The notes under the pieces were generated by a model. That model was not told the origin of the DNA. It worked only from the letters and a program-made list of their open reading frames with translations, and made no database searches. A DNA stretch of 64,000 nucleotides from assembly GCA_963777315.1 (NCBI GenBank), contig CAVZQC010000004.1, forward strand, positions 736,001 through 800,000, written 5' to 3'. Positions 30,977-49,729 of this stretch are shown here, one piece after another (the first letter of the stretch is position 1; every line of letters begins with the position of its first letter). The stretch comes from Vulcanimicrobiota bacterium (GTDB lineage Bacteria; Vulcanimicrobiota; Vulcanimicrobiia; Vulcanimicrobiales; Vulcanimicrobiaceae). A program made the translations under genes and the position numbers.

Positions 30977-31694
30977 ATGCCCTCGTGTTCTGCTGCCGTC
31001 GTCCAGCCGTCGTACATCCCGTGGCGCGGTTACTTCGATCTCATCCGGCGCAGCGACGTGTTCGTATTTTACGACGACGTCCAATACGACAAACACGGCT
31101 GGCGCAACCGCAACCGCATAAAGACAGCCCAAGGGCTGCGCTGGCTAACGGTCCCGGTTCATGCTAAAGGCAACACGCTGGGCGGTACGCCGATCAACCG
31201 TATTCGCGTCGACCATACGCGCGACTGGAAGCGCGCGCATGCAGAGCAGCTTCGCCATTCGTACGCGCGAGCGCCGTTTTACGAGCGATATCGCGAGCTG
31301 ACTGCGGAACTCTACGCGAGCGCTTGCGAACTGCTGGCGGACTTCACCATCGCCACGACGATTCGGCTGGCCCGCCACCTGGGAATCGAGCATACTCGCT
31401 TTCTGCGTTCGTCGGAATTCGCCGCGTCGGGCGCCAAGACGGACCGTCTGATCGATCTGTTGCAGCAAATCGGGGCAACGCACTACATCAGCGGGCCGTC
31501 GGCGCGGGCCTACATCGAAACCGACAAGTTCGCGCGCGCCGGCATTTCATTGGAGTACGCCGCGTACGACTACGCCCCGTACGAGCAGTCTGTATCCGCC
31601 GTACGAAGCCGGCGTTTCCATCCTCGATACGATTTTCACGCTGGGTCCGCGAGCGCAATCCTGTTTCGAGCCGGCACGTGCGCCCGCCGGCTGA
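30977..31694 (+). CDS. WbqC-family protein, apparent +1 frameshift at about 31589
   Basis: QPSYIPWRGYFD, DDVQY..GWRNRNRIK, YISGPSA; removing T31589 restores EQLYPPYEAGVSILDTIFTLGP, the expected C-terminus. Confidence 0.88.
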
Positions 31695-31719
31695 TAACGC
31701 GGCGCGCACATCGCTGCGC

Positions 31720-32850
31720 GTGCCGTTCAACAAACCGTACGTAACGGGCCGCGAGATGCAGTACCTGCAGGAAGCCATCGACAACGCGCATCTTTCCGGC
31801 GACGGCCCGTTCACCGAGCGAATCCATCGCCGGCTGGTCGAGCGCATCGGCTCTGAGTCGGCTCTGCTGACGCATTCGTGCACGGCCGCGCTGGAGATGT
31901 GCGCGCTGCTGCTCGACATCCGGCCCGGCGACGAGGTCATCATGCCTTCCTACACGTTCGTGTCGACTGCGAACGCATTCGTATTGCGAGGCGGCGTGCC
32001 GGTGTTCGTGGACATCCGGCCCGATACGATGAACGTCGACGAAACGCTCGTCGAGGCCGCCGTTACGCCCAGAACTCGCGCAATCGTGGCCGTCCACTAT
32101 GCGGGCGTTGCCTGCGAAATGGACGCACTCGCGGACGTTTGCGCGCGACGCGGGCTGAGCCTGATTGAGGACGCCGCGCAGGCGCTGGGCGCGAGCTACC
32201 ACGGTCGTCCACTGGGTTCGTTTGGGCGCCTGGCTGCGCTCAGCTTCCACGAGACCAAGAACGTGATATCGGGCGAGGGGGGCGCGCTGCTCGTGAACGA
32301 TCCCGCATTGTCGCAGCGAGCGGAAGTCATCCGCGAGAAAGGCACGAACCGTTCCAACTTCCTGCGCGGTTCGGTCGACAAATACCGCTGGGTCGACGTC
32401 GGGTCTTCCTATCTGCCCAGCGAAATCACCGCAGCGTTCTTGTGGGCGCAGCTCGAAGCCGCGGATGAATTGCTCGAGCGCCGGCTCTCCCTGTGGAACG
32501 CATACGACCGCCGGATGTGCGCGCTCGAAGACGCCGGCAAACTGCGCCGTCCCACGATACCGCAGAGCGCCACGCACAACGCGCATCTGTATTACGTGCT
32601 GGTGAACGACGCGCAAACGCGCACGCGCGTGCTCGAACGCCTCAAAGCCCAGGGCATCGGCGGGCTGTTTCACTACGTTCCGCTTCATTCCGCTCCGGCG
32701 GGCCGGCGGTTTGGACGCGCGCACGGTTCGCTGGCTCAGACCGACGAACTGAGCGCGCGGCTCGTGCGGCTGCCGATGTATTACGGCATGGAACAGGCGC
32801 ATATCGACGGCGTCTGCGCCGCGCTCGAATCTGCGCTCGGTGCAGCCTAA
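31720..32850 (+). CDS. rffA: dTDP-4-amino-4,6-dideoxyhexose transaminase (WecE/RffA type)
   Basis: PFNKP, SGDGPFT, SCTAALEM, EDAAQ, SFHETKN, IREKGTNR, GSSYLPSE, FHYVPLH. Confidence 0.93.
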   Translation: MPFNKPYVTGREMQYLQEAIDNAHLSGDGPFTERIHRRLVERIGSESALLTHSCTAALEMCALLLDIRPGDEVIMPSYTFVSTANAFVLRGGVPVFVDIRPDTMNVDETLVEAAVTPRTRAIVAVHYAGVACEMDALADVCARRGLSLIEDAAQALGASYHGRPLGSFGRLAALSFHETKNVISGEGGALLVNDPALSQRAEVIREKGTNRSNFLRGSVDKYRWVDVGSSYLPSEITAAFLWAQLEAADELLERRLSLWNAYDRRMCALEDAGKLRRPTIPQSATHNAHLYYVLVNDAQTRTRVLERLKAQGIGGLFHYVPLHSAPAGRRFGRAHGSLAQTDELSARLVRLPMYYGMEQAHIDGVCAALESALGAA

Positions 32851-33362
32851 TCCGCCAAGCGCGCCAATCGCCACACCGGTGCGAACGCGCCGTTCCAAAA
32901 CGCTTCTTCCTCCAGCGTAGCCTCCAGGGTAAAGCCGGCGCGCTCGAAAGCAGCGCGCGAACGCGCGTTTCGCTCGTGAACGTATGCGTAAATTTTATGC
33001 AAACCCAACGTGCCGAATCCGTACGCGCACAGGGTCCGCAGTGCACCGGTTCCGTACCCTTGCCCGGCCGCGGCCGGTGCAACGACGATGCGCGCCTCGG
33101 CGCGCCGGTGTCTCTGGCTGATGTCCCAAAGCCACACGATGCCGACGTGTTCGCGGCCGTCGAGGGCTTCGATGGCAAACCAGACCGCGCCGGGATTCTT
33201 CGTTACGTTTTCGTCAATGTACCGGTCGTGCTGTTCGGCCGTCACCGGAAGCGCGCGGTCCAGTCCGTTCATGACGGCGGGATCGTTGATCCATTCCAGC
33301 CAGCGAGCGCGATCCGCAGGCTGCAGCGGCCGAAGCCGCAGCCGTTCCCCCGCTTCGAACAT
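32847..33362 (-). CDS. GNAT (RimJ/RimL-like) N-acyltransferase
   Basis: LRLRPL, GQGYGTGAL, LGLHKIYA, NARSRAAFERAGF; alternative start 33413. Confidence 0.85.
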   Translation of the reverse strand: MFEAGERLRLRPLQPADRARWLEWINDPAVMNGLDRALPVTAEQHDRYIDENVTKNPGAVWFAIEALDGREHVGIVWLWDISQRHRRAEARIVVAPAAAGQGYGTGALRTLCAYGFGTLGLHKIYAYVHERNARSRAAFERAGFTLEATLEEEAFWNGAFAPVWRLARLAD

Positions 33363-33393
33363 GCCGCCGCGTTTCGACGGCCCGCGCGGGCGC

Positions 33394-33421
33394 TCATGCC
33401 CCCGATTTGCCATGCCGATGA
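33394..33421 (+). promoter_or_regulatory. Candidate sigma28-type promoter (TCAT-N16-GCCGATGA)
   Basis: Motif spacing; followed by AGGAG SD and ATG 33447. Confidence 0.4.
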
Positions 33422-33446
33422 ACTGTAGGAGCCTTAGGAGATTGCC

Positions 33447-34271
33447 ATGATCACGACCAAAACGCTGCAGGCGAATATCGCGGTCCACACGACGATGGCG
33501 GATCGCTACGAAACCGACGAACCGCATTTCCGCCCCGAGAACCAGCACAAGGTCCGGCGCGTCCTGCAGACGCTCGCAGCGCGAGCCGGCGGCGGACGGC
33601 TGCTGGACGTGGGATGCGGTACGGGCTTCATCATCAATCTCGCGCACGATCTGTTCGATTCCGTCGACGGCATCGACATCACGCCCGCCATGCTGTCCAA
33701 AGTCGACGTAGGGCCGGGGAACATCGAGCTGCACACGGGCGCGGCCGAGTCGCTGCCGTTCGCAGACGGCACGTTCGACATGGCAAGCTCTTACGCGTTC
33801 ATGCACCACGTCGAAGATCACAAGCGAGTCTTGGCCGAGGTAGCGCGCGTCTTGCGCCCGGGCGGCTTGTTCTACGTCGACCTCGAGCCCAACAAACTCT
33901 TTTGGCAGTCGATGGTCGGGCTGGAGCGCGAAGGCGGCGCGTACTCCGATATCCTCACGCGCGAAATAGACTCCGTACTGCATACCGACGAATCGGTCGA
34001 AAGCGAGTTCGGAATCGCGGGGCAGACGTTCAAAGACGCGGAGCCGATAAAATCGGTCCTGGGCGGTTTCGATCCGTACGAGTTCGAGCGCGACGCGCTC
34101 GCCGCCGGTTTTTCGTCGTGCGAAACGACGTTGGACTGGTTCGCCGGACAGGGCGCCGTTCTGCACGGCCAATCGGAAGAGGCAATGAACGCGGTGGACG
34201 CGTACTTGCGCCGCGTGCTGCCGCTGTCGGCGCACCTGTACAAATACATCCGGTTCGTATGCGTGCGATGA
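33447..34271 (+). CDS. Class I SAM-dependent methyltransferase
   Basis: LLDVGCGTG, AESLPFADGTFD, RVLRPGG; AGGAG RBS. Confidence 0.9.
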   Translation: MITTKTLQANIAVHTTMADRYETDEPHFRPENQHKVRRVLQTLAARAGGGRLLDVGCGTGFIINLAHDLFDSVDGIDITPAMLSKVDVGPGNIELHTGAAESLPFADGTFDMASSYAFMHHVEDHKRVLAEVARVLRPGGLFYVDLEPNKLFWQSMVGLEREGGAYSDILTREIDSVLHTDESVESEFGIAGQTFKDAEPIKSVLGGFDPYEFERDALAAGFSSCETTLDWFAGQGAVLHGQSEEAMNAVDAYLRRVLPLSAHLYKYIRFVCVR

Positions 34272-35053
34272 TTGCGCGCAGCGAATCGCCCGCTGCCGGC
34301 CTGAGCGAGATCGCCTCACGCGGCTACACCATCGTCAGCAGCGTGGTCGCGCAGAGCGAGGTGGGCGCGCTCAAAGACGCGTTGGCAACGGCGATCGCGC
34401 AGGATCTCGACGCTTGGAGCGGGCGCGACTACGTGAACGCTCACATGGTGATGAATCTGATGACGCGCGGCACGCCGTTCGCTGCGCTGCTGGAAAACGA
34501 CGCAATTCACGCGCTGCTCACCCCGCTGCTGGGCGATACGTGCATCCTGTACGCGTACACGTCTTCCAGCATGCCGCCCGGCGGCACGAACTATTCGCGC
34601 CGGATCCACGTGGATTGTCCGCGCGTCATCCCAGGCTACGTCACGAACGTCGGCGTGACGCTGGCACTGGACGACTTTACCGACCAGAACGGCGCGATGT
34701 GCCTGCTGCCGGGTTCCTTCACGCGGGAAGTCGAGCCCAGCGAAGACGAATTCGAGAGCCGCTGCGAGCGCGCGTATCCACGCGCGGGCGACGCCATCGT
34801 GTTCAACGCGCGCACGTGGCATCGCGGAGGGATAAACCGCACCGATCGCTACCGGCACGCCGTTACGATGAACGCATGCCGTTCCTACATGCGCCAGCAG
34901 TTCGATTATCCGCGCCTGGTCGGGCCCGACGTTACGAATTCGCTCGGCGATCTGGGGCGGCGGTTTTTGGGATTCAACGTTCGCATGCCGGCGACGCTCG
35001 ACGAATACTATCGGCCGCCCGAGCTGCGCCTCTATAGGACGAACCAGGGCTAG
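34268..35053 (+). CDS. Phytanoyl-CoA dioxygenase (PhyH) family Fe(II)/2-oxoglutarate oxygenase
   Basis: HVD, ALDDFTDQNGAM..LPGS, WHRGG.N. Confidence 0.88.
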   Translation: MIARSESPAAGLSEIASRGYTIVSSVVAQSEVGALKDALATAIAQDLDAWSGRDYVNAHMVMNLMTRGTPFAALLENDAIHALLTPLLGDTCILYAYTSSSMPPGGTNYSRRIHVDCPRVIPGYVTNVGVTLALDDFTDQNGAMCLLPGSFTREVEPSEDEFESRCERAYPRAGDAIVFNARTWHRGGINRTDRYRHAVTMNACRSYMRQQFDYPRLVGPDVTNSLGDLGRRFLGFNVRMPATLDEYYRPPELRLYRTNQG

Positions 35054-36804
35054 TGATCGCCGCAGACAGAGCATCGCCGATCGCGTGCTTCGGCACGGCG
35101 GCGACCACCGCATGGGCGCAGCGCCTTCCCGCTGACGTTTCCATGGTAGTGGCGGACCCCGGCGGTTTTGCCGGCGCCCTGGTGGATCTCATCGCGCGAG
35201 GCCTGGCCGGCACGTCGCGCGACGCGGCGATTCTGCCCGCCAATCCGCGAGCGCTCGTACTCGAGTCGGTGTTCGAGTCACTGCTCGGACAAGCGCAATC
35301 TCACGATGCCGTTTTCCGGGCCATGGATGCTTTGGCGATGGGCAAGCTCACGATAAACGGCGAAACGCAAGCTCAGCTCGAATACCGTTTTCTCGCGCCG
35401 GAGGCGGCTGCAACCTTCGCAGACCTCGCAATAACCGCCGACCGCACATTTTTTCGTTCGTTTCACGAATTGGAACGAGCGGTTGCGCAGTACGGATACC
35501 GTCCCCCGCGAGCGCGCATCGTAACGCCGGTCGATCCGCGCGTGCCGCTGCCCCGCACCGGCGCCGGCGACGCCGATACGCGACGCGACTGCATTGCGGT
35601 GTGGGCCGTCGGCAGCACGCCGGCGATGCTGGGCGCCTTCGAAGCTGCGTGCTTCGATCTGCGTACGCAGCTCACCGTCATCGGCGACACGCCGCGACAT
35701 TGTGCGGCGGTGCATCCGGAAGGCTCCCACGCGGTTCTCGAATCGGCCAGCGCGATCGTCGCGCTCGCCGACGATCCGGGCACGGTTTACGCCCTCTCGA
35801 AGTTTGCCAAACCGCTGTGCGCGCCGGTGTGCGGCGCTGCCGAAATCATCGAAAACCTGTACGAATTTGCGCCGTGGAATCGAGTCGAAACCGTCAACGC
35901 GATCCTGCAGGCGCTCAGGGGCTTGGCCTCCGCGCCGCTGCCGGCTCACGGCCGGCTGAGGTTCCCCACTGCGCCGGCGATCGAAGTCGCTTCCAGCGCG
36001 CCGCTGGTCACGATCGTCATGCCGACCTATTCGCGTCCCGCGACGCTGGCTGCGGGATTGCAGCGTCTGGCGCAGCAGACGTATCCGAACATCGAGATCG
36101 TCGTGGTGAACAATGCCGGCACGCCCGTCGGCGACGTCGTTGCGAACGTCCCCAATGCGCGCCTCATCGATCGCGCGGAAAACACCGGCAATGCCACGCG
36201 CCCTCGCAACGACGGCATCGCATCGGCTCGCGGGAAGTACATCGCGCTGCTCGACGACGACGACGTATTCTTTCCCCAGCACGTCGAGCGCATGGTGCAC
36301 GCCCTCGAAGCGTCGCGCCGCGATGCGGCCTATTCGGATTTTCTGGTGCGCTTCGTCGATCGCGCCGGCGACGGCGGCGAGCGCGTTTGGGGATGGGACC
36401 TGCAAAAGCCCTTCGGCATAACGTCGTACGAACTGCTCGTGGCCAATCGTCTGGGATACCTGACGGTCTTTATGCGGCGCTCGCTCATCGAACGCATCGG
36501 CCACTTCGCCGAGGAAGTGCTGGGCGGCGAAGAGGTCGAGTACTGGCTGCGCATTGCGGCGCACGTCGATTTCGTTCACGTCGCCCAGCCGACCACCGCT
36601 TACACGGTCGTGCGCGACTGGCGCGGACAGCTCAGCGAGAAAAGCCACGCGCTGTATGCAGGCGGGTACGAAAAGGTATACGAGCGCTATCCGGCGGCCG
36701 GTTTGCCGTTGGTGCAGCAATCGCGCGCTGCATACGTGGCTTCCCTTCGCAGCACCGTTGCGCCGCCTGCGATGGAGCCGCGGTATAGGATCGCCGCAGG
36801 ATGA
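35053..36804 (+). CDS. GT2 glycosyltransferase with uncharacterised N-terminal region
   Basis: VTIVMPTY, QTYPNIEIVVVN, RNDGIASARGKYIALLDDDD. Confidence 0.87.
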   Translation: MIAADRASPIACFGTAATTAWAQRLPADVSMVVADPGGFAGALVDLIARGLAGTSRDAAILPANPRALVLESVFESLLGQAQSHDAVFRAMDALAMGKLTINGETQAQLEYRFLAPEAAATFADLAITADRTFFRSFHELERAVAQYGYRPPRARIVTPVDPRVPLPRTGAGDADTRRDCIAVWAVGSTPAMLGAFEAACFDLRTQLTVIGDTPRHCAAVHPEGSHAVLESASAIVALADDPGTVYALSKFAKPLCAPVCGAAEIIENLYEFAPWNRVETVNAILQALRGLASAPLPAHGRLRFPTAPAIEVASSAPLVTIVMPTYSRPATLAAGLQRLAQQTYPNIEIVVVNNAGTPVGDVVANVPNARLIDRAENTGNATRPRNDGIASARGKYIALLDDDDVFFPQHVERMVHALEASRRDAAYSDFLVRFVDRAGDGGERVWGWDLQKPFGITSYELLVANRLGYLTVFMRRSLIERIGHFAEEVLGGEEVEYWLRIAAHVDFVHVAQPTTAYTVVRDWRGQLSEKSHALYAGGYEKVYERYPAAGLPLVQQSRAAYVASLRSTVAPPAMEPRYRIAAG

Positions 36805-38549
36805 CGCTGCTTTTGCACTGGAACGAGCGCGAATATGCCGAGGAGACCGCTTCGATCCGGTCTTTGCCGCAAGCCCAGTCCACGCTTGTCGTCGCGACGG
36901 ATTTTTCGCAGCCCTCGCTGACCGTTTCGGCGATCGTCGAAGCTCGCCGGCGCGGAGCAACCGTCGCGCTCTATCCGATAATGGCGGATCCGCTGCAGGG
37001 CGTGCTCGAGCAGGTCGGCGCTGCTATAGCGCGGCAGCCCGACGAAGGTCAGCGCTTCATTCAGCTCCTGGCGCTGCGCGACGGGCGACTGAACGTCAAT
37101 CAGAAACCGCTGCACGAAGCCGCGCAGTTTGCACCCGACGTGCTCGCCGCGGCGGTTTTATGCGTGAAGTTGTGCGACGTGCTGCTCTGCTTTACCGCCG
37201 CAGAGAAAGATCGCTGGAGCGCGCTGATCGGACGCCCCGTTCGCAGGTTTGCGTATTTGCCGGCGCCGCGGCTGCACCGCGCACCGGACCGGGGCGGTCT
37301 TGCCGTGTACGCTCCCGGAATGGCCGACGCGCAACTCGCGCTGATCGCGCTTGCGCTGCAGGAACGTCGCCTCAGCGCCGAGTTCGTCAACCAACCGCAG
37401 GCGCAGATCCCGGGTAGTGCGGTGATCGTGCCGCAGTGGTGGCGGCCCGGCCGGATTCTTTCGCTTGCCGCTGCCGGTTATGCCGTCATTTCGCCCGCGC
37501 TTGGAGCAGCCGATGCTCGCTGCGGATGCGCCACATATCGTCCGGAAGACGTCTTTTCGTTCGGAGCCGCCGTGGACGCGGCCCAATCGACCGCGGTCGG
37601 ATTGCGCTTCGACGTCGACGCACGCTCGTGTGCCGGCGATATCGAGGCCGCCGCAGTACCGGACGTGCGAGGGCCGCGCGTTTCCGTCATCGTGCGCACC
37701 TACGACCGGCCGGCACTGCTGGCGCGGGCGCTGGCCAGCATAGCAGCACAAACGTATCACGACATCGAGATAGTCGTCGTCAACAACGGCGGCCCCGGCG
37801 TCGAAGCAATCGTGCGCAAGAGCTGCGGCGCGCGCGCGTACCGCTACGTTACTCTGGCCGTGCGCGCGCACATCAGCGCAGCCTCCAACGCCGGCGCGCG
37901 TGAGGCTAGCGGAACGTACGTGGGCTACCTGGACGACGACGACGTATTGTACCCCGACCATTTTGCGCGCGCCGTCGAAGCGCTCGAGCATTCCCGCGCA
38001 GATCTGGCTTACACCAACTGCATCGCCGAGTATGCGCGCGTCGAGGGCGAATCCAAACACATCTTAGGGTTTCAGATATTCCGCGACAACGAATTCTGCG
38101 CCAAAGACCTGTACTTGGACAACGTGGCTCCAATCCACAGCATCGTTCACCGGCGCGACGTCTTCGAGCGGTTCGGGTACTTCGACGAGTCGCTCCCGGT
38201 GACCGACGACTGGGAAATGTGGCTGCGCGCCTCGCGCGGTTCGCGGTTTTTACACGTCGATCGCGTGACCTGCGAATATTCCTGGCGCTTCGATCCGGCG
38301 CGGGGAAACATGACGCTGACGCACCAGCGTCAATTCGCCGAATCGTACGAAGCAATTACTTCGCGGTACGGCTGCGACGTTGCCGCCATTCCGAGCATTG
38401 CAGCGCAGCAGCTGCAGGTCAAAGCGGCGCAAAAGCAGCGCGCCGACCAGCTCGCGCAGCTCGGACCGCGCATGGCCGAGCTGACCGTCAGCGCGATGGC
38501 GCAAAACGCGGTTGCGGCGCAGCCCGTGCCGTTCGATCCTTTTGCATGA
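36801..38549 (+). CDS. GT2 glycosyltransferase with uncharacterised N-terminal region
   Basis: VSVIVRTYDR, QTYHDIEIVVVN, YLDDDD, FDESLPVTDDWEMWLR. Confidence 0.87.
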   Translation: MTLLLHWNEREYAEETASIRSLPQAQSTLVVATDFSQPSLTVSAIVEARRRGATVALYPIMADPLQGVLEQVGAAIARQPDEGQRFIQLLALRDGRLNVNQKPLHEAAQFAPDVLAAAVLCVKLCDVLLCFTAAEKDRWSALIGRPVRRFAYLPAPRLHRAPDRGGLAVYAPGMADAQLALIALALQERRLSAEFVNQPQAQIPGSAVIVPQWWRPGRILSLAAAGYAVISPALGAADARCGCATYRPEDVFSFGAAVDAAQSTAVGLRFDVDARSCAGDIEAAAVPDVRGPRVSVIVRTYDRPALLARALASIAAQTYHDIEIVVVNNGGPGVEAIVRKSCGARAYRYVTLAVRAHISAASNAGAREASGTYVGYLDDDDVLYPDHFARAVEALEHSRADLAYTNCIAEYARVEGESKHILGFQIFRDNEFCAKDLYLDNVAPIHSIVHRRDVFERFGYFDESLPVTDDWEMWLRASRGSRFLHVDRVTCEYSWRFDPARGNMTLTHQRQFAESYEAITSRYGCDVAAIPSIAAQQLQVKAAQKQRADQLAQLGPRMAELTVSAMAQNAVAAQPVPFDPFA

Positions 38550-38579
38550 CTTTTCGGCTGCGCTGCAAAATTCGCCGGA

Positions 38580-39506
38580 ATGTCGAAGTATTACCGGTAC
38601 TTCGCCCTTGAACGGGATCCGTTCTTAGACACGGCCGACCCGTATTTTTACTGCGAACTCGGCTCGCTGCGAGCGGCGAAGGCCCGGCTGGCAGGCTGCG
38701 TGCAGGAATCGCGCGGACTGACGATCGTTTTGGGCGAACCCGGAACCGGCAAAACCAGTCTTTGCACTGCGCTGGAACAGGATCTGCTCGCGGACGATCG
38801 CGTCGTACTGGGCAAAATCCTGGATCCCACGTTTGCAACCGAAGTCGAATTTCTCATGGCGATCGGCCGGGTATTCGGTTTGGCGCTCCCGCCGCGATCC
38901 GGCGCGGCGCTCAAGAACGCGCTCAAAAATTTCTTCTTCGAGACGGCGGTGCTGGAGGAGCGCATCCTCGTGCTCATCATCGATGAAGCGCAAAACCTCA
39001 CCGACGAAGGCTTGGAAACGCTGCGCCTGCTGCTCAACTATCAAGTACCGCAAAAGAAACTACTCAATATCCTGCTGTTCGGTCAGAGCGAGCTGGAACG
39101 CCGCGTGCATGCGCGCAACAACCTGGCCGACCGCGTCGACACGTGGATTCGCCTGCAGCCGCTGGACGAAGCTACGGCAGGCGCGGTTCTGGATTTTCGG
39201 CTCGGCCGCGCCGGTTTGAATCCGGACCAGCAGATCTTCACGCCCGAGGCGCGCTCGCTGCTGGTACGCGCCTGCAGCGGGCTTCCAAGGCGCCTGACCG
39301 TGCTCGGACACCTTTCCATGAACGAAGCCGCCGATCGCGCCAGCACGTTGGTGCGCGACGATCACGTTCGCGCAGCGCTGGCCGCGCGAGGCATTTCGGA
39401 ACCCGCGCCGGTTGCGGCGCAGGCGGGCCCCGAACCCGTCAACGGACACCGTCCGAACGTCTTGCGCCGCATCTTTTCGCGGCGCAAACCCGCGCAGCTG
39501 CCGTGA
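38580..39506 (+). CDS. ExeA/GspA-like AAA ATPase
   Basis: YFAL..DPF...DP.FY, GEPGTGKT, IIDEAQNL, LLFGQSEL, SGLPRRL. Confidence 0.85.
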   Translation: MSKYYRYFALERDPFLDTADPYFYCELGSLRAAKARLAGCVQESRGLTIVLGEPGTGKTSLCTALEQDLLADDRVVLGKILDPTFATEVEFLMAIGRVFGLALPPRSGAALKNALKNFFFETAVLEERILVLIIDEAQNLTDEGLETLRLLLNYQVPQKKLLNILLFGQSELERRVHARNNLADRVDTWIRLQPLDEATAGAVLDFRLGRAGLNPDQQIFTPEARSLLVRACSGLPRRLTVLGHLSMNEAADRASTLVRDDHVRAALAARGISEPAPVAAQAGPEPVNGHRPNVLRRIFSRRKPAQLP

Positions 39507-40884
39507 AGCGCGATCCCGATTTCGATGCGAGCGCCGATATGCGCCTGGTGGAACTGCATCGAGCCGCCCTCGGCGTCCCCGCGCCCAAACGCTCGGCATG
39601 GGAATCCCACAACGCCTTTGAAGGGGCCGCTATTCAACCCGTAGAGCCACCGCATCTGGAGAGCGCCGTCATCGTCGTGGAGGCCACGGCGACGCCCAAG
39701 GACGGCGTTATTCCGGGTGCCGTCGTCACCGTTGCGCTCAGTTTGGCCAACGAAGGCGTCGCCGAAGGACGCGATGTCCGCGTCATCGTGCCACTTCCCG
39801 GCGGAGCCGCGTACCGCAACGGCTCATTCGTTCGCGACGGTCGTCCCCAATTGGACGATGCGGCCGACGAGCTCTTCGAAAGCGGCAGCACGATCGCGTC
39901 GTTGCCGGCCAAATCACGCACGACGTTCGTATGGAAGATCGGCGTTCGTCTGGGCGCCAAGCCGCTGGTAATCGCTCCGGCGGTTAGCGCTCGAGATACG
40001 GCGATCGTCGGCGCGCAACCACTGATCGTCTCGCGCAAACCGGGCGCGCAAGCGGGCTTTGCCGCGCAAGTGCAGCAGAACGATCTGCCCATCTACGAGC
40101 TGGACGAGGAGGAAACGCTAGAGCACGTCGCCGCGCAGGCGGCGCTTTCGGCGGTTGCCGCGCCCGTTGAAGAGGCGCCGCAGGCCGAATCGCCGCTCGA
40201 AATATCCGCCCCCGCGCCCATTGCCGAACGCGAGGCCGTCGTCCTGTACGGACGGTTGGATCGGCCCTCGGTCGCCTATTTCGAGCAGGTGTTTCGTGAA
40301 TCCAAAAATCCCACGCTGCTCAATCATTGTATTTTGGCAGGCGCGCTTGCGTGTACTCGAGACGCCGCCGGCGCCGACGTTGCAGGGCTGGCGTCGCACA
40401 TGGAGGCGCAGGCGCAGACTCCTTCAACGCATCGTGCTGCACGAAAAAATCGGAAAGAAAGAGCCCATCGCCGACTATGCCGGCAGAATGCTCGCGCGGG
40501 TCGATCAATTTGTCCCCGCCCCCGTTGCGCAGCTGTCGGCCCGCGGACGATCCTAACGTGCTGGTGCTGCAGGCCGAGCTGGAACCGCCGACGCTGTCGC
40601 TGCTGCGGCAAATGCAAGAAGACGCCGCACGCTGGGATTTCGCCAAAGCGCGTCAGCTCACGCTGGCTCTGCAAGGACGCCGCGTCGGCGCCGGCGTATC
40701 GGCGGATCGCGTTGCGGCCGCCGACGCGGCTTTACGCGTCTATTCGCAGGCCGCGTCCACGCAGCTGCAGCGTTTCTTCGTTCGCATGCGCATCGATCGA
40801 ACGACCGGTTTGCTTTTCGTGCGGGACGAAACGCTCGATTCGGCCGCGCGGGTCCTCGTCAACGCGCTGGTCGAGCTCTTTTAA
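39503..40884 (+). CDS. Hypothetical protein with DUF11-like Ig domain, two apparent +1 frameshifts (about 40418 and 40536)
   Basis: GTG overlaps the ExeA stop; PGAVVTVALSLANEG...VPLPGGAAYRNGS; reading frame moves MEAQAQ to LLQRIVLHEK to PADDPNVLVLQ and ends LVELF*. Confidence 0.6.
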
Positions 40885-41270
40885 GTCAGACGGTCCAGCG
40901 ACGCAAGCCGCGACGTAGCGCGCGGGCGCGCGAAGGAGCGTAAAGCCGATTTCCAGCGAGTCACGGTCTGCAGCCGCTGCCCGACGGCATCCCGGTATTG
41001 CGCCAGGCGCGCCATTTGATTGTCGCGGATGGCCCCAACGTAGCGCAGGCGGGCGAATACGTCCCGATCGAACTGCTCGCTGCGAACGCCGCGCGCATCG
41101 TCCATGGCATTGGCCAGCGCGTGCGTCACGCGCCGCGAATCGTCCATCGTGCGCTGCAAATCGCTCCATCGCCGAGTCATGAGGGCGCGCTCGGCTTGGC
41201 CGCACAGCGCTTCCAATTGAGCGAGTTCTTCTTCGACGGCGTCGAGGCGCGGGTCACCCGACCGCAGCAA
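40881..41270 (-). CDS. Putative flagellar chaperone (FliT/FlgN-like helical protein)
   Basis: Directly downstream of fliS; helical composition; assignment by position only. Confidence 0.5.
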   Translation of the reverse strand: MLRSGDPRLDAVEEELAQLEALCGQAERALMTRRWSDLQRTMDDSRRVTHALANAMDDARGVRSEQFDRDVFARLRYVGAIRDNQMARLAQYRDAVGQRLQTVTRWKSALRSFARPRATSRLASLDRLT

Positions 41271-41694
41271 AGCCTTCTCCCACCGCCGCCGGCGCGGCCG
41301 GCTTGCGCTGCATGCCTTTGAATTCCGAAATCGCCTGCGCCCACATCGCGCGGTACTCCTCGAACGAGGGAAGGATCCGTTCCACGCGAGCCGCGTCTTT
41401 TTGCATATTCGCCATCACCAGTTCGTGATGCCAGAACTCGTAAACCCGGAACAGATTGCGTGCCACCTCGCCGCCGATCTCCATGTCGAGCGAACCCATC
41501 AGCAGCGCGAGCGCCCGCTGCGCGCGCAGCAGCGACTTGTGGATGCCCTCGATGTCGCGCCGGTCCGCGCGAAGCTTCTCCAGACCCTGCGTCGCGCTTA
41601 AGACCAGCACGTCGAAAATTTTGACGATCAGGTCTTCTTTCGACGCAGTCGCGATCGACGTTTCGAGATACTGCCGTTCAACCGAACGCTTCAT
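41254..41694 (-). CDS. fliS: Flagellin export chaperone FliS
   Basis: YLETSIATASKEDLI, LMGSLDMEIGGEVARNLFRVY, ANMQKD. Confidence 0.92.
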   Translation of the reverse strand: MKRSVERQYLETSIATASKEDLIVKIFDVLVLSATQGLEKLRADRRDIEGIHKSLLRAQRALALLMGSLDMEIGGEVARNLFRVYEFWHHELVMANMQKDAARVERILPSFEEYRAMWAQAISEFKGMQRKPAAPAAVGEGFAAVG

Positions 41695-41706
41695 GCAGGC
41701 CGGATG

Positions 41707-43720
41707 CTAGCCGCCGCTTTGTCCGTTTTGATTGAAGAACGAACCGAGCTGCGACTGCAGGGATTGATACTGAGCGATCTGCGTTTCGGCTTGAACGAAC
41801 TCGGTGCGCATTGCGTCGGCCTGCATGTTGACGTTGTCTTGTATCTGCGCGATCTGCTGCTGCAGCGACTGGATGTTCGAACTGTTGGTGTTTTCGAATC
41901 CCTGCACCAATGAAACGCTCGGGATCGCCCCCAGCAGCGCGTTAGCGGTGTTCGTCGGCATGCCCGTGACGCTGGTGAGATACGTGCCCATTTGCGTGAC
42001 CAGCCCCTGCGGACCGTTGAACAGCGCCTGCACCGCGTTCGGATTGGCAGCCAACGCCTGCTGCAGTTGCTGCACGTTGAGCGGCTGCAATTGGCCGTCG
42101 GTTCCGGCCATGGTCTGCGTGCTGATCTGTTGGGTGGAAGCGCCCGTCGCATCCGACGACGTGTTCTGCGCCAGCTCGCTGAAGGAACTGGTCAGGTCCA
42201 GTCCGATTGCCGAGAGCGAACTATAGGCTCCGCCGTTGGGATTGAACGCCGTGACCATCTGCACGAGTTCGTTCTTGATCGAATTCACGTCGGCATTGTT
42301 GTACAGAACGCCTCCGCCGACCGGCGTAGAAGGAGCGCCCATGCCGGTTCCGGCCGGCGACGTGGGAACGACCGGGGGCGCCGTCGCGCTGTTGATTTCG
42401 TTGATGGCGGCGTTATACGCCGAAACGAACGTGTTGAGCGCGCTGACCAGCGACGAGCTGTCCTGCGTGACCGTAATTTGGAAGGGCGAAGCGGCCGCTC
42501 CGGTGACGTTGATCTGCACGCCCGGTATCGCGGTGGTGACCGCATTGCTGCTGCTGTAGATCGTTTGCGGAGGTCCCCCGCCGTTCTGAACCGTGACGGA
42601 GGCTTGTTTGCCGATGGACGTGGTTGCGCCGCCGGCCGTGGTCAGTCCGGTGGCGCTCAGGAAATTGCTGCTGTCCGACCCCGAGCCCAAGACGATGGAC
42701 TGAGGTCCGGTATTCTTGTTCGTGAGCGTGATTTGCCCGGTCGACGCGTTATACGAGGCGACGACGCCTGCGTTGGATTGATTGATGCGCGTGAGCACCG
42801 AGGCCAGGTTGTCCGCAGACTGCATTGACGGAAATCTGAACGCCGTTGATGGTGAAGACGCCGCTTGTGACCGCGGTGGCATAATTCGCGTTCGTGCTTT
42901 GGCCAAGCGCGTTGGTCGAATTGAACGCCGGCGCCTGATTGATGCCGCCGACGCCGGCCGTGGCAACGACCGAGCCGGACGACGCGCCGTTGTTGACCTG
43001 CGCGGAATCCAGTCTAAGCACTTGCAGCAGGTTACCGGAGTCGCCAGGAGCGCCCAAAGAAATGGGGCGGCTCGAATCCGAGATCTGCACGGCGCCGCCC
43101 ACCAACTGCATGGTGAATCCGGCATCGCCGGCAGCGTGCTCGGCAGTGTTGACGTTGGCGATAATCGTGTTGAGCGAGTCGGTCGTTACGTTGTAGGAAA
43201 CGGTTACACCGTTTATCGTGACCGAACCGGTTGCGCCGGCTCCGTTGCTGGGAGTGATCGCGGCCCATGAATCGCTCAGGGGCACGTCGGCGCCGGAGGC
43301 CGTCGTTCCCGGCATCGAGTCGGTGATGGCGTGACCCATACCGGCGGCTCCCAAGACCTGCGTTGCCGTTGCAAGCGTCGTTCCGTCGATGGTATAAGTT
43401 CCCGGAGCGGCGCTCGCGCCAGGAATGCCTTGAGCGCCGGCATCGGCGGGATCGCTCGAGACCGCACCCACCGCGTTATAGCCGTCGGGCTGCGACAAAG
43501 CCGTGAGCGCGTTCTGCACGGACGCCAGCATCCCGTTGATCTTGATCAGCTCGCTGTTGGCGGCATTGAGCGTCGCAATCTGCGCGTTGAGCGAGACGGT
43601 CGGCTGCAGCGAGAGCGAGGTCAGCTTCTGGATGATCGAATTGTAGTCGATTCCGGAAACGATGCCCGGAAAAGAAACGGGCGGCACATTGTAGCCGGGA
43701 ACGCTTGAAGTGCTGGACAT
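41707..43720 (-). CDS. fliD: Flagellar filament cap FliD, apparent +1 frameshift at about 42819
   Basis: SFPGIVSGIDYNSIIQKL N-terminus; FVSAYNAAI and FVQAETQIAQYQS C-terminus; removing one base gives ISVNAAADNLASVL. Confidence 0.88.
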
Positions 43721-43728
43721 TATCGTTC

Positions 43729-44067
43729 CTACGCGTTCCTATCCAGCGCTACGCCGCTGTGCTTGTCGAAAAATTGAGCCATCTGCACGACCATCTCAGA
43801 GGGAACCTGTGCTATTTCCTCGCCCGTATGCGGATCCGTGAAGACCATGACGATCATGTTGGGATCGTGCTCGACGCGGTATCGCACGTCGACCGTTACC
43901 GGCTGCGCGGGATGGCCCTGTGAGAAAATCTTTGCGATCACCGGAGCGAGTGCGTCGCCGTTCGGCGCCGCGGCGAATTGCTCCGATTGAGCGGTGCCGG
44001 CATACGGAACCGCAGCCGGGGGCGTCTGTTGCAGCACTGCGGCGGCGGCAACGCCTTGAACGTCCAT
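43729..44067 (-). CDS. flaG: FlaG family protein
   Basis: DPHTGEEIAQVPSE, GVALDRNA; upstream of fliD. Confidence 0.85.
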   Translation of the reverse strand: MDVQGVAAAAVLQQTPPAAVPYAGTAQSEQFAAAPNGDALAPVIAKIFSQGHPAQPVTVDVRYRVEHDPNMIVMVFTDPHTGEEIAQVPSEMVVQMAQFFDKHSGVALDRNA

Positions 44068-44089
44068 GTTAGGCCTCCTACTCCTTTAG

Positions 44090-44117
44090 TGTTCGGCCTT
44101 GCGCAGGCGGCAGTTTA
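44090..44117 (-). promoter_or_regulatory. sigma28 promoter of flaG-fliD-fliS (TAAA-N16-GCCGAACA)
   Basis: -35 TAAA 44117-44114, overlapping the upstream stop codon; -10 44097-44090. Confidence 0.75.
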
Positions 44118-45965
44118 GGCTCCCACGCGGGCTTGCGAGGCAGCCGCGTAGGCCCGCACGGTGGTCGCCAGCGCAGCCCTTGGATCGCAGGAAGCGAGGA
44201 CGCGCCGAGCACACTCGGCGAGCGCGCGCGGACGTTCGCCTGCCGCCATCCACGCATCGCCCAGGGCGATCGCTATAGAGGCGGTATCCCGCGGATCCGC
44301 CTGCCACGTGCCCGCTCCCCATTGGCAGGCGTAGCCGGAAGAAATGGCCGCAGCGCACCCGCTCGCGATCGCTTCGGCGATGCGCCGCAGACCAAAGCGC
44401 ACGTAACCGACGTCCGCAAACACGCGTGCGCTGCGGTACAGCGCCGCTCTGACGGCGGGATCGGGCTCGGGAACGAACAGCGTTCGTTCGTCGGCGAACG
44501 CAGCCAGGTGCCGGCGGTACCGTTCGTCGCGAACGGGGCCCGCGATCACCAGCGGCAAACCGGCCTGCGCGGCCGCCCGCACGAGCAGAAATTGGTTGGC
44601 GCGCGGCTCGACCGGCGCATGCGCGAGCACGAAATCCGACGTTCCGACCAAACGTTCGATGCAAGCCGGAGCAGCGGACCTTTCCAGATATGCGGGCGCG
44701 TGCAGCACCGGCCCGTTAAAGCCGCAACTGCGCACGAGCTGCGCTTCATCCGTACCGGCGGTTATCACGGCGTCGGCTCGAGCCAACACCTCGCGCAGGC
44801 TGCGCTCGTATCCCGCAAACGGTTCGCCGTGCGACTGCGGCGCGGCCAGCCGGTCCTCGATGGAGATTTCATCTTCGGCGCGTTCGATCGCAGCGGTCGA
44901 GATTGCGGCTTGCCACGAACTTTGCGCGACGACGTCCGGCAGCCCAGCGGTAACGACCAGAGCAGTATCCGCCGCGCGCGCCCGCGCCGACAGCGCCGCA
45001 AGTCCCTGCGGCACCGCAAGCGTGAAAGCGTGCACGAGGTCATAGGCGCCGGGATCGCAGGCCGAAGCGAAACACACGTCGACGGTAAACCCTTCTTCGC
45101 GCAGTCGCCCTGCAAGCGTTTGCGCATCGTCGGAATCGGCATCGGGTGCGGCTTGCCAGTCGTCGCGCAGCGCAATGGCAATGCGGCCCGAGGAGCCACC
45201 GTGCGCGCGAACGTCGATCGCGAAAGCGGGCCGTACCGTTCGACGGACCGAGCACTCCACATGGAAACTGCGCCTTACCGCGTCCAGCTCCACACGAATG
45301 CCCGCGGGCCCGGCATCCGCACCGATTGCGACATCGTACTCGCCCTCCAGCGGTGAAAATATCGCCGTCGCGTACCAGCGTGCGGCCAGGGCGTTGCGCT
45401 GGGGATCGCCCAAGTCCGCGCGCACGTGCGCCGCGTGGCGCGCGAGCATCAGCGCTCCGCACGCTCCGTTCTCGTCGGCGATTCCGACGCGGCGATCGGT
45501 CGCAAAACGGGCCGCATGCATGTAGGCCGCGGCATCTTCACACACCAAGCGATACGCAGCGGCTCCCAGAAAGCGATTGCGCCGTGCCCGTTCGAACAAG
45601 GCGGCGCCGTCCCCGCGAAAAAAGCGCACGGCTTCTTCATCGAGCCGGCGCGCTTGGATCCATGGCAGGAGCGCGGCCTCGAGCGCGGCGGCTTGCTCGT
45701 GCGACACGCAATGCGCATACGCCGCAGGCCATACCAGTGCAGAGAGTTCGGGATACTCGAGCATTTCGGGAACGATTTCGATCCGCGGTACGACCGCAAC
45801 GTTCTCCCCGTCGAAAAACACCAGATCCATGGCCGCCGGCTCATCTGCGCGCTCATCGATAGGCTCGATCCGTGCAACGGTCAACGTCTGCGCGTTCAGG
45901 CTCACGCGTCCGTGCGACCACTGCGCGAAGTGCGTGAATGCTGGATGGCGCCGATGCGTTCTCAT
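44115..45965 (-). CDS. Putative glycosyltransferase (GT-B/GT4-like C-terminus, divergent N-terminus)
   Basis: YDLVHAF, VEPRANQFLL, PLVIAGP, LYRSARVF...FGLRRIAEAIASG. Confidence 0.7.
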   Translation of the reverse strand: MRTHRRHPAFTHFAQWSHGRVSLNAQTLTVARIEPIDERADEPAAMDLVFFDGENVAVVPRIEIVPEMLEYPELSALVWPAAYAHCVSHEQAAALEAALLPWIQARRLDEEAVRFFRGDGAALFERARRNRFLGAAAYRLVCEDAAAYMHAARFATDRRVGIADENGACGALMLARHAAHVRADLGDPQRNALAARWYATAIFSPLEGEYDVAIGADAGPAGIRVELDAVRRSFHVECSVRRTVRPAFAIDVRAHGGSSGRIAIALRDDWQAAPDADSDDAQTLAGRLREEGFTVDVCFASACDPGAYDLVHAFTLAVPQGLAALSARARAADTALVVTAGLPDVVAQSSWQAAISTAAIERAEDEISIEDRLAAPQSHGEPFAGYERSLREVLARADAVITAGTDEAQLVRSCGFNGPVLHAPAYLERSAAPACIERLVGTSDFVLAHAPVEPRANQFLLVRAAAQAGLPLVIAGPVRDERYRRHLAAFADERTLFVPEPDPAVRAALYRSARVFADVGYVRFGLRRIAEAIASGCAAAISSGYACQWGAGTWQADPRDTASIAIALGDAWMAAGERPRALAECARRVLASCDPRAALATTVRAYAAASQARVGA

Positions 45966-47713
45966 GCCGGCACTTCGCGCAGCAGATACCGGCGCAACCC
46001 GCTCGGGCTGGCATCGCGCAGATCCTCGATGCGGACGTGCCGCGCCCGCGCTGTCGCAGCAATCCGGCCGTCGTCGTCCGTTTGTTCGCTCACGTCGATG
46101 TCGGCGACGGTATGCAACTCCATGCCCGCGCGCTGAGCGAAGCGTTCCAACCGCGCACCGATCGTCTGCGCCGGCAGATCCCCTAGTGCTGCAATGGCCA
46201 GCAGCACCGCATGGTCCGCGTCGAAGGCGCGCAGATAGCGGCCCGCAAAAGCGCCGACGCGGTTCCAGTCGCTTTCATCGCGCACCGTGGCGGTAAACAC
46301 GACGTCATACGTCCGATCCTCCCGGGCCTGCGGCTGCCGGGGCAATGCAACGTAATGAAGGTCGCGAACGAAGCCGCGCCGGATGGCCGGCCCGGGGACG
46401 TAGCCGCCGCCCTGCCGTATTTGCGGAAGATCCCATTTGGCGGCGAACTTGAGCCAGTTCTCGCGCATCGTCGCGGTCCAGTCGATCTTGTTGGCCGCAA
46501 AGGTCTGGGAACCGAAGTGGTGGATGAACACGTCGTCGCAAACGTAGATGCGATAGCCGGCAGCGCGCACGCGCAAACAGAAATCGTCGTCCTCGAAATT
46601 GCCGATGCCGAACCGCTCGTCGATTCCGCCGATCTCCTCGACGACGCGCCGATCGATGCACAAACACAAACCGATCGCGCGGTCGGTCATGTAGCCTCGA
46701 TCGCGATACCGCTCTCGCCTGGCGGCCGCAAAACGGTGCATCTGCGCCATGTCGGCGTATGCAGCGCCGATGACGATCTGATCGCCCGCTATCTTGTTGC
46801 TGCGCGGGGCCGACACCCCAAGTCCGGGAACTCGCTCGAATGCGCCGAGCAGGCCGTCGAGCCAGCCTGCCGTCACCACCACGTCGTTGTTGAGTAAAAC
46901 GATGTAGTCGCCGCGAGCCGCCGCGATCGCTTGATTATTGCCGCCCGCGAACCCGCGATTGGTCGGATTGAAGATCACGCGCACGCCGGTGAGCGTCTTG
47001 AGCCAGTCCACGGTCTCCGCGCGCGAACCGTTGTCGACGACGATCACCTCATAGTTGCCGCTCGTGTGCGAACGGATCGATTCCAGGGCGAGCTTGGTAA
47101 ATTCCGGCGCGTTCCAGCTGAGCATGACTATCGATACCAGTCCGCGCTGCACCGGCTGTGCGCTGCGCGCCCGTTCGATCGGCTCGGCGCTCGTGCCGCC
47201 GGTGCGCGTGACGATTCCGCGCTGGACGGCGCCCGCGAGCAGCTCCGAAACGGCCGCATCGAGCGAGCCGCACTCACGCAGTCGCTCGTGCTGGGGAAAC
47301 TGGGCGAGCGCGAGCAGGGTGCAGCACGCATTTGCGCAGGATGCGGCGCCTACCGCCGGCGAGCATTCGACCTGGGCGATCAGTTCGTCGAGCCAGCCTT
47401 CGCTCAGCGCGCTGCCCGCGCGCACCAGCGCGAGGTACCGATCGCCGCGAATCTCCATTTCCGCGCGAACCGCCGCTATCGCTTCGGAGGATCGCGCGAA
47501 GACTATGCGCTTGACCGGCGCGCGGTTGGCCTCGAGCGTCCGCGCGAAAGCGGCTCGATCGAACGGCGCCGGCTCACCGTGGCACACGATCGTCGTTTGC
47601 GGAATGTCGAACGTGTCGTATACGGCTGCGCCGCGCGGCATGCGCACGCAGCGGCGAATGGTGCCTTGCTCGATGTAGCGCAGTTGCTCGGCGGGTTCCA
47701 CGCGCACAATCAT
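45962..47713 (-). CDS. GT2 glycosyltransferase
   Basis: VSIVMLSWN, EVIVVDNGS, NRGFAGGNN, LLNNDVVV, IDERFGIGNFEDDDFCLR. Confidence 0.88.
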   Translation of the reverse strand: MIVRVEPAEQLRYIEQGTIRRCVRMPRGAAVYDTFDIPQTTIVCHGEPAPFDRAAFARTLEANRAPVKRIVFARSSEAIAAVRAEMEIRGDRYLALVRAGSALSEGWLDELIAQVECSPAVGAASCANACCTLLALAQFPQHERLRECGSLDAAVSELLAGAVQRGIVTRTGGTSAEPIERARSAQPVQRGLVSIVMLSWNAPEFTKLALESIRSHTSGNYEVIVVDNGSRAETVDWLKTLTGVRVIFNPTNRGFAGGNNQAIAAARGDYIVLLNNDVVVTAGWLDGLLGAFERVPGLGVSAPRSNKIAGDQIVIGAAYADMAQMHRFAAARRERYRDRGYMTDRAIGLCLCIDRRVVEEIGGIDERFGIGNFEDDDFCLRVRAAGYRIYVCDDVFIHHFGSQTFAANKIDWTATMRENWLKFAAKWDLPQIRQGGGYVPGPAIRRGFVRDLHYVALPRQPQAREDRTYDVVFTATVRDESDWNRVGAFAGRYLRAFDADHAVLLAIAALGDLPAQTIGARLERFAQRAGMELHTVADIDVSEQTDDDGRIAATARARHVRIEDLRDASPSGLRRYLLREVPA

Positions 47714-49729
47714 GCGAGTGCGCTTTCCGCCACGCGTTTGGCTTCGTCCAAGCGTCCCAAACGCAGATACAAACTCGCCAGTTCCACCGCTACCCGCTGT
47801 TTGCCGACTCCCAGTGCGCTGCACAGCAGCGTTTCGGCTTCCGAACTGCGGTCGAGCGATTCCAGCAGCGACGCTTTGACCAAAACCGCGTCGACGTTGA
47901 GCGCTCCCGCCTGCAGGACGCGTTCGATCGCCTCGAGCGCCTGCGCGGGATTGCCCGTTTCACGCAGGATGGCCGCGCGTAAAAACCATGGACCGTCTCC
48001 GACTGCGGGATCGGTAATGGCATCCAGATGCCGCAGCGCTTCTTCTTTGCGATCCAGATTCGCGCACGCCAGTGCGGCGTAATACCCGAAGCGGCCGTCG
48101 CCCGGGTGCAGCCGCACGCCCTCGCATGCCGTCTCGAGCGCGTCTTCGTAGCGCTTGGCCGCAAACGCTTGGCTCATGCGCTCGAACCGCTCGCCGGCCT
48201 CCCCGCGGTTCTTCTCCAGCGCATCGAGCGCGCGCGCGGCATCCTGCGAATCGGGTGCGATTCGGCACGCCTCCACGACGAATCGCTCGCCATCGGGCCA
48301 ACCGTTTTGGCGGCAGACGTAGGCCGCTGCCAACAGCATGGATACTGCGGTTTCTTTGGAGAGAGCGCTTGCGGTGCGGTCGATGAGCGCCACCGCTTCG
48401 CGTTCCTTTTTGTGACGCAGCAGGTAATTGACCAGGTTGACGGCGGACAGTTCGTCGCCGAAGTCTTCGTACAGCGAGCGAAATGCCGCCTCGGCTTCGG
48501 CAGGACGGTTCAACCGCTCCAAAGCGCTCGCGCGATTCAGGCGCAGCGGCTGTATCGCCGGACGGTTCGACAGTCCGCGTTCGAACCACTCGAGCGCCTG
48601 CGCGTCGTCGCCTTGCTGCACGTAGGTGCTGCCGATTTCGCACTGCGCTTTCCAGGCCGACACCTCGTCGTCGACGACGAACTGGCGATCGATGAAGTCG
48701 CCGTCTTCGATCGCCTTGCGATACATGTCGCGCGCGCTCTGCAAGTCGTTCATCAAAAAATACGCCTTGCCGGCCGAGAAATGCGCGTTCGCGTATCGCG
48801 GCGCTCGCTCGATGCAGAGCTGCGCGTCAGCTCAAGCCTTTCTCGGGCATTCCAAGGTGCTCGCTGTAGATGTCGGCGAGCATCTGCAGGCCGTTTGGCG
48901 TGAACGCCCGCATGCCGTGTTGCTTACACAACTCCCACATGCGCTCGAAGCCTTGGGCCGCGCGGGTTTGGTCGCCGCCCAAATGGGCGGTCATTCCCAA
49001 ATTGTACCAATGGAACGCATCGTCGGGATTCTCGGCCAGGGTCTGCTCGATGATTCGCATGTTGCGAGCGTACTTGTCGCGGGCACTGACCACTTCTTCG
49101 AGATAGCCGTGGTGCAGGATTTTGATTGGCGCGGTCACCGCGTCCATCGATACGGCGCTGCCGTCGACGCTGGGAAACTCGTGGATGGCCCCGCAGAAAC
49201 GAATGCGTTCGTGGTTTGGAAACAGCCTCACGATCGCGTGCGAGATCGTTCCGCCGCCGCGGTAGCGGTTGGACGAGTTCGCGCACCGCAGCCATACGCC
49301 GGTCAGATGTGCGGGCGCCGTTTTGAGCTGCTCGAGCGCGGGCAAGGATTCCGCCAGCAGCTCCTCGTCGGCATCGAGTTGAAAAATCCAGCGTTTCGTC
49401 GCCATTACGAGGGCTTGATTGCGCGCCCACGCAAAGTCGTTGCGCCATTCGCGCCGCTCGATGCGCGCGCCGAACTGCCGGGCGATGTCGACCGTGCGAT
49501 CGGTCGAACCGGTGTCGACGACGTTGATTTCGTCGACGATGCCTGCCGCGCTGGCAAGACATCGTTCCAAAAATCGCTCTTCGTTGCGGACGATCATGCA
49601 CAAGCTTAAGCCCGCAGGACGCTGAAGCCAATCCTTCGGAGGGACCGGCAGTCCAAACGGCGGCACGGCGTGCGCCGGCGGAGAGGCCGGGGGCGCGCAC
49701 GTGCCCTGCGTGCGTACGCGTATAGGCAT
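47710..49729 (-). CDS. GT2 + TPR flagellin-type glycosyltransferase, apparent +1 frameshift at about 48827
   Basis: LSLCMIVRNEE, VDTGSTDRT, WRNDFAWARN, LDADE, GAIHE, HHGY followed by TPRs; removing one base joins ORFs 48827-49729 and 47710-48756. Confidence 0.87.

Follow-up and report, generated by a model that had tools for sequence, protein, structure and literature searches.

Five +1 frameshifts interrupt four genes in a 64,000-nucleotide stretch of a Vulcanimicrobiota genome, and the question raised by this locus is whether they are real lesions or assembly errors, and which sequence motif they share. The stretch analysed here, referred to as the window, covers positions 736,001 to 800,000 of contig CAVZQC010000004.1 (GCA_963777315.1) and is part of contig C4 of a 2.83 Mb assembly in six contigs, with 63% G+C and 90% completeness. 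A preliminary description placed all five insertions at GCWG[A/T]C and read them as the possible trace of a system that modifies or restricts GCWGC. Our analysis leads to a different motif. The five insertions belong, we conclude with good confidence, to a genome-wide set centred on AGCT; they are likely nanopore consensus errors, probably resulting from N4-methylcytosine (m4C) placed by a putative orphan methyltransferase encoded outside the window.

Frameshift-aware alignment with same-genus orthologues revealed a one-base excess at or near every one of the five sites (31590, 40416, 40543, 42819 and 48828), in agreement with the frameshifts as first described, and DNA alignments with relatives made the excess visible at 4 of the 5. 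Among 66 relative proteins aligned to the window, no further +1 shift well supported on both sides was found. Three sites have the form AG[T/A]CT and the other two adjoin an intact AGCT (Table 1); each of the five also carries GCWG[A/T]C, as originally reported. The extra base near 40536 had been left unpinned, and our alignments place it only within the interval given in Table 1, the best-scoring removal being 40543 (88 vs 81) and the next 40535/40536. At 48827, the earlier repair to LSCAQL with restoration of GCWGC did not hold: the best-scoring removal is 48828 (144 vs 135), giving LSYAQL and no GCWGC, and because the orthologue has Tyr at this place, the extra base is most likely 48828 rather than 48827. 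Pfam searches of the orthologues bore out the gene labels WbqC, FliD and GT2-TPR (Glycos_transf_2 and TPR), while the label "DUF11-like" was not borne out, the intact orthologue of that gene, left unnamed here, having no Pfam hit. No in-frame stop codons occur in the alignments of the four genes, and identity stays high beyond the breaks. The -1 steps in the window alignment are most likely due to breaks on the relative's side. In the relative, the fliD and GT2-TPR orthologues seem to be broken at different places (window 42457 and 48475) from the window copies, as expected for independent errors.

To place these sites in the genome as a whole, genes were called in this genome and in a same-genus genome, G001 (93% complete; 2.79 of 3.0 Mb used), and 2155 G001 proteins were aligned to this genome with frameshifts allowed. 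Requiring strong alignment on both sides cut the 425 raw events to 266, and requiring coding-like sequence on both sides as well left 125, comprising 99 +1, 25 -1 and one -2 shift; the wbqC site failed these filters and was confirmed separately. In an unbiased k-mer scan of the 125 frameshifts, the top word was AGACT/AGTCT, seen 46 times vs 1.0 expected, and the next enriched words were CAGAC, AGCTG, CAGTC, ACAGA and AGCTC. AGCT or AG[A/T]CT, together called AGCT-type words below, lies within 10 bases of 81 of the 99 +1 shifts, compared with 5.7% of random places (binomial p about 1e-82). G001 bears the same signature, with the same top words and an AGCT-type word at 159 of its 284 +1 shifts over a background of 4.8%.

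Of 39 AG[A/T]CT breaks, 23 align with AGCT in the relative; in unbroken genes, used as a control, the same holds for 28/475 AG[A/T]CT and 1202/3431 intact AGCT words. As judged from these alignments, the true sequence at the central insertions is most likely AGCT. Three error forms were seen: AG[A/T]CT, T[C]AGCT (equivalent to AGCT[G]A) and TC[G]AGCT (equivalent to AGCT[C]GA). The flanks are not random, as 23 of 45 central insertions fall in CAGCTG, which makes up 14.5% of AGCT sites. The aligned genes contain 5256 AGCT sites, of which at least 81 (1.5%) are in error; the window holds five among 194. AGCT is slightly rarer than expected, at observed/expected ratios of 0.88 and 0.79. The whole-genome count of CAG[A/T]CTG is 211 vs 160 expected, a measure too blunt to serve as a cross-genome test.

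The identity of the broken genes argues that they are intact in the cell. Of the 89 relative proteins carrying an AGCT-type break, 79 were scanned against NCBIfam; the others comprised 7 that crossed stretch borders and 3 that belong to genes of the window. Genes broken by a +1 shift at AGCT-type sites include cysS, valS, ligA, rpsA, polA (twice), secY, secD, map, ftsH, guaA and pyrB; in each, identity is high to both sides of the break, and the genome holds no other strong copy. The preliminary description had favoured artefacts in intact genes, which these essential single-copy genes and the matching signature in G001 support; its alternative, real lesions confined to dispensable genes, falls because essential single-copy genes (cysS, valS, ligA, secY and rpsA among them) are broken elsewhere in the genome. 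Fragmented assemblies of enzyme-bearing relatives, covered at 14 loci over 55.6 kb, show no frameshift of their own once three mismatches to G001's own broken enzyme gene are set aside. This absence has a probability of 0.06 at the error rate of this genome and 0.004 at that of G001, which is modest support. One public DNA run holds the strain at a depth of 2-3, and 14 of its 32 records are at least 99% alike with no indels listed; no RNA run was listed as holding it. Among long-read relatives, covered for a few kb, G015 has one +1 shift at AG[A]CT, G011 has one that stands amid several unrelated errors, and L183 has one beside AGCT. We regard it as almost certain that the five insertions are systematic assembly errors in genes that are intact, and as highly probable that modification of AGCT is their cause.

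Errors of this class are already known, and the artefact itself is ordinary. In Listeria, nanopore assembly errors have been linked to GCAGC/GCTGG (PMC10687267), and errors have been reported at about 2% of GAAGAC sites, together with 2-4 errors per assembly at G5mCWGC (10.1101/2024.07.12.603236); strand-specific errors can also be used as a detector of modification (PMC11610603). The errors described here resemble those of the three reports, as far as their available text goes, in being clustered on one short motif, in affecting a few per cent of motif sites (at least 1.5% here, close to the Listeria GAAGAC figure) and in the presence of a methyltransferase in the genome. They differ in that the motif is AGCT and the errors are single-base insertions, whereas the papers stress substitutions and other motifs. 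Because the platform is not given for this assembly, we infer its nanopore origin. Judged by title or the start of the abstract, no paper describing AGCT insertions in nanopore assemblies was found in the literature.

The most plausible writer of the mark is the only PF01555 enzyme of the genome (Table 1). It matches PF01555 at 114 bits and is of the beta class, with a DPPY catalytic motif ahead of the FMGGG S-adenosylmethionine (AdoMet) motif. Its neighbours are an M48 peptidase gene and a gene of 510 residues, and the neighbourhoods differ among relatives; the 510-residue neighbour has 78-85% identical orthologues far from the relative's enzyme. A cognate restriction enzyme, if there were one, would be hard to recognise by sequence. 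Of the methyltransferases found in the genome, only the PF01555 and Dam-family enzymes have orthologues in G001. The C5 enzyme was found neither in G001 nor in G015, and the PF02384 and Eco57I-family enzymes have no orthologue in the portion of G001 covered. The candidate gene is itself +1-shifted beside AGCT in two relatives' assemblies (L156 in G001 and L162 in G011), and it may therefore be annotated there as a pseudogene. Taken together with its archaeal relatives described below, these data make it likely that the PF01555 enzyme, a putative orphan, writes m4C at AGCT.

Table 1. Insertion sites, methyltransferase genes and repeat arrays discussed in the text. Plain numbers are window positions; G000 is the genome containing the window.
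Feature	Position	Strand	Remarks
AG[T]CT, extra base mid-AGCT	31587..31591	+	Breaks wbqC (about 30977-31711, +); WbqC PF08889 on intact orthologue
AG[A]CT, extra base within AGCT	40416..40420	+	Unnamed gene (about 39503-40884, +); relative has AGCT here
Intact AGCT (40531-40534), one-base excess 1-9 bases downstream	40531..40543	+	Second break of unnamed gene 39503-40884
AG[A]CT, extra base within AGCT	42817..42821	+	Breaks fliD (about 41707-43720, minus); FliD_N on orthologue
T[C]AGCT (minus strand AGCT[G]A), extra base adjoining AGCT (48829-48832)	48827..48832	+	Breaks GT2-TPR gene (about 47710-49729, minus)
PF01555 methyltransferase, candidate writer	G000 C4:926000-927151	minus	Only PF01555 enzyme in genome; outside window
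Dam-family enzyme	G000 C2:531792-532475	minus	TIGR00571 above cut-off on relative's orthologue; unlinked to candidate writer
C5 methyltransferase (PF00145)	C2:858545; L011:604-2529 = G000 C2 about 857650-859570		Genome's only one; divergent from Vsr gene
PF02384 (type I-like) methyltransferase	G000 C5:145726-147204
Eco57I-family methyltransferase, 1354 residues	G000 C6:15236-19270		Among large genes
AGCT-rich arrays in G001	C1:1519288, 1059564, 912319; C3:40072		Loci L107, L084, L077, L139

The closest characterised setting for the candidate is archaeal. It shares 62% identity with CCJ35311.1 of Methanoculleus bourgensis MS2 over 323 residues, 55-60% with Methanoregula and Methanospirillum proteins and 42% with a Nitrosopelagicus protein; among 81 genomes of the Methanospirillum order, 32 have a full-length match of 57-65% and 18 a shorter form of 44-51%. 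Methanoculleus carries two recurring beta groups, HG10 (GTAC, cluster 301) and HG16 (AGCT m4C, cluster 357); in the available text of the same paper, HG10 is absent from Methanoregula and Methanospirillum, and HG16 is the only beta group kept by all three genera (PMC10609329). The HG16 cluster includes a member from Methanohalophilus mahii DSM 5219 (PMC10609329), whose enzyme M.Mma5219II methylates AGCT to m4C (PMC11033074). Several Nitrosopumilus genomes have one beta and one alpha enzyme only, fitting AGCT m4C and GATC N6-methyladenine (m6A) (PMC10609329), a pairing also supported by PMC6329791 and PMC8919816. In bacteria, AGCT methylation has been described in Fimbriimonadia (10.64898/2026.06.24.734251). 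By similarity and phyletic pattern, the candidate would belong with HG16 and not with HG10. It shares with the archaeal orphan AGCT m4C enzymes HG16 and HG11, as they appear in the accessible part of PMC10609329, the beta class, the apparent lack of a travelling partner gene, retention throughout several genera and co-occurrence with a Dam-like GATC enzyme, and it stands at 55-65% identity to the long form of Methanomicrobiales, compared with 42% to the short Nitrosopelagicus form. The hosts differ: those of HG16 are Methanoculleus, Methanoregula and Methanospirillum and those of HG11 are Nitrosopumilales, whereas the host here is a Vulcanimicrobiota/Eremiobacterota bacterium. Unlike HG16 and HG11, the candidate is carried by a minority of the family genomes sampled (see below), and its specificity and modified base are deduced from the error motif and homology.

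We propose the following mechanism. The assembly would have been made from native-DNA nanopore reads, and the orphan enzyme would methylate AGCT to m4C. The methylated palindrome would alter the current, and the base-caller would add a base in one of the three forms given above; at roughly 1.5-2.5% of sites, the majority of reads would contain the added base. The error would survive polishing, leaving genes that are broken in the assembly and intact in the cell.

Alternative explanations were weighed against this mechanism. A GCWGC modification or restriction system, the original proposal, draws on the letters GCWG[W]C at all five window sites and at 31 of the 99 +1 shifts, on the GCWGC-linked errors described in Listeria and on the C5 methyltransferase with Vsr encoded in this genome. 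At each of those 31 shifts, however, GCWG[W]C overlaps an AGCT-type word, and at 50 others the AGCT word stands with no GCWG[W]C; the reverse case, GCWG[W]C with no AGCT-type word, occurs at 0 of 99 (2.7 expected by chance), so that no effect regardless of flanks was found. The genome-wide tabulation of motifs suggested in the preliminary description thus gives enrichment at AGCT/AG[W]CT and none for GCWG[W]C independent of it; in a genome of 63% G+C, GCAG[W]C is no more than the flank most often found around AG[W]CT. GCWGC is not depleted (0.97), and the orthologue-matching repair at 48828 does not produce it. The known GCWGC systems (M.BatI, PMC8936443; M.AbaBS3I, PMC6329791; TseI/ApeKI, cited in the preliminary description) have in common with the window sites the letters themselves, but no GCWGC frameshift is independent of AGCT and no C5 enzyme is common to both genomes that bear the signature. 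The suggested search for a cytosine methyltransferase did yield the C5 enzyme with Vsr; this enzyme is not shared by G001 and was rejected as the writer, and no second error motif traceable to it was found. We therefore rejected GCWGC as the frameshift motif, and a GCWGC footprint is now scarcely credible. A less remote alternative, although still improbable, is that the errors are artefacts at AGCT but that the mark is another modification (m6A, 5-methylcytosine or a backbone modification) or the product of another enzyme. The DPPY motif of the candidate would allow this, and the genome, at 90% completeness, also encodes the C5, Dam-family, PF02384 and 1354-residue Eco57I-family enzymes. Against it, orthologues in G001 are limited to those of the Dam-family and beta-class enzymes, and relatives of the candidate match published AGCT-m4C groups; Dam was rejected as the error source because GATC is not among the enriched words and lies near only 15 of the 125 shifts.

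Two further readings dispense with modification as the source of error, and we consider both very unlikely. If the insertions were real mutations at AGCT, as a cut site or mutational hotspot, the genes would be pseudogenes; no read data directly contradict the five extra bases, and the mild under-representation of AGCT would fit such a process. The breakage of essential single-copy genes argues otherwise, as do the high identity downstream of the breaks, the lack of in-frame stops in the four window genes and the absence of frameshifts from the fragmented assemblies of enzyme-bearing relatives. The base-caller or polisher might instead err at unmodified AGCT contexts in general. The preference for CAGCTG is compatible with such an error, and enzyme-negative long-read relatives were covered for only about 3 kb at four loci. 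However, the available text of papers on nanopore error names other motifs elsewhere (GAAGAC, GCWGC, GCAGC and GCTGG), each tied to the modification system of the strain, and an enzyme closely related to AGCT-methylating ones is encoded in this genome.

Several observations weigh against our preferred explanation, namely nanopore errors at m4C-modified AGCT. All 120 close homologues of the candidate carry DPPY, and JGI calls them adenine-specific; DPPY is more usual in m6A enzymes. Eighteen of the 99 +1 shifts have no strict AGCT word within 10 bases, several of these having AG[C/G]CT or an AGCT just outside. Only 13 of the 25 -1 shifts have an AGCT-type word, in a list that is unreliable because it includes G001's own +1 errors. 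In L177, a relative assembled as a single contig and carrying the enzyme, the 6.3 kb covered are free of frameshifts, and no listed piece of the public DNA run spans any of the five sites. The emphasis of the nanopore papers on substitutions over insertions, as far as their available text goes, also runs counter to our explanation. HG16 is linked to the candidate through phyletic pattern, as the supplement rows in PMC10609329 are without accessions.

The distribution of the candidate enzyme was examined in 201 same-family genomes, of which 39 carry it. Every sampled member carries it in some genera (8/8, 4/4) and none does in others (0/8, 0/7, 0/6); one of the 39 carriers is an unpublished genome (G031), and the negatives also include unpublished genomes. 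A Dam-family enzyme is present in 42 of the 201 genomes, and 31 have both. Dam thus occurs in 31/39 carriers vs 11/162 non-carriers, and in neither this genome nor G001 are the two genes linked; because kin are not independent, the pairing may reflect a single joint inheritance. Close homologues of the candidate come from records labelled Vulcanimicrobiaceae. In a quick tree, which gave long-branch warnings, a branch with SH-aLRT 96 has all ten bacterial rows to one side, and Methanomicrobiales rows lie between the bacterial rows and the short archaeal form, a topology that suggests a possible transfer of the enzyme from methanogens. The candidate had no match in plasmids at 1e-30, and neither AGCT nor GATC clusters near dnaA in this genome or G001. 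The fuller scenario, in which an AGCT-m4C orphan methyltransferase passed from Methanomicrobia into a subgroup of Vulcanimicrobiaceae and has been retained there together with an unlinked Dam, is a tentative one that we think somewhat less probable than its contrary. A bacterial subgroup carrying this archaeal-type enzyme, mostly with an unlinked Dam, is new; the literature search found nothing on methylation motifs in Eremiobacterota/Vulcanimicrobi, although REBASE or bioRxiv supplements may already hold an assignment.

For the reading of this genome, the flagellar and glycan genes of the window and about 80 further genes are to be taken as intact, and calls of pseudogenes or pathway loss at AGCT are unsafe in this assembly and its relatives. 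The errors also provide a free, if indirect, methylome for a poorly known bacterial family. An archaeal-type AGCT enzyme accompanied by Dam extends the open question in PMC10609329 of a common role for GATC and AGCT. If the transfer scenario above is correct, this would be a bacterial counterpart to the persistent orphan pair, GATC and AGCT, of Methanomicrobiales and ammonia-oxidising archaea; both marks might then share an epigenetic job across domains, and the frameshifts would be the first read-out of the enzyme's activity in this lineage.

Some minor observations were made in the course of this work. G001 contains intergenic arrays of a degenerate AGCT-rich repeat with the look of REP (repetitive extragenic palindromic) elements, with up to 15 AGCT in 400 bases (Table 1); the top-ranking AGCT clusters of the genome containing the window included no comparable array. 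The rpoB gene is split over frames in three few-contig genomes of the family (G011 C14, G074 C6 and G066 C2), of which two carry the candidate enzyme and G066 (76% complete) is not listed with it. Across the whole genome that contains the window, the most depleted 5-mer is TGACA/TGTCA (observed/expected 0.36) and the most depleted 4-mer is CTAG (0.62).

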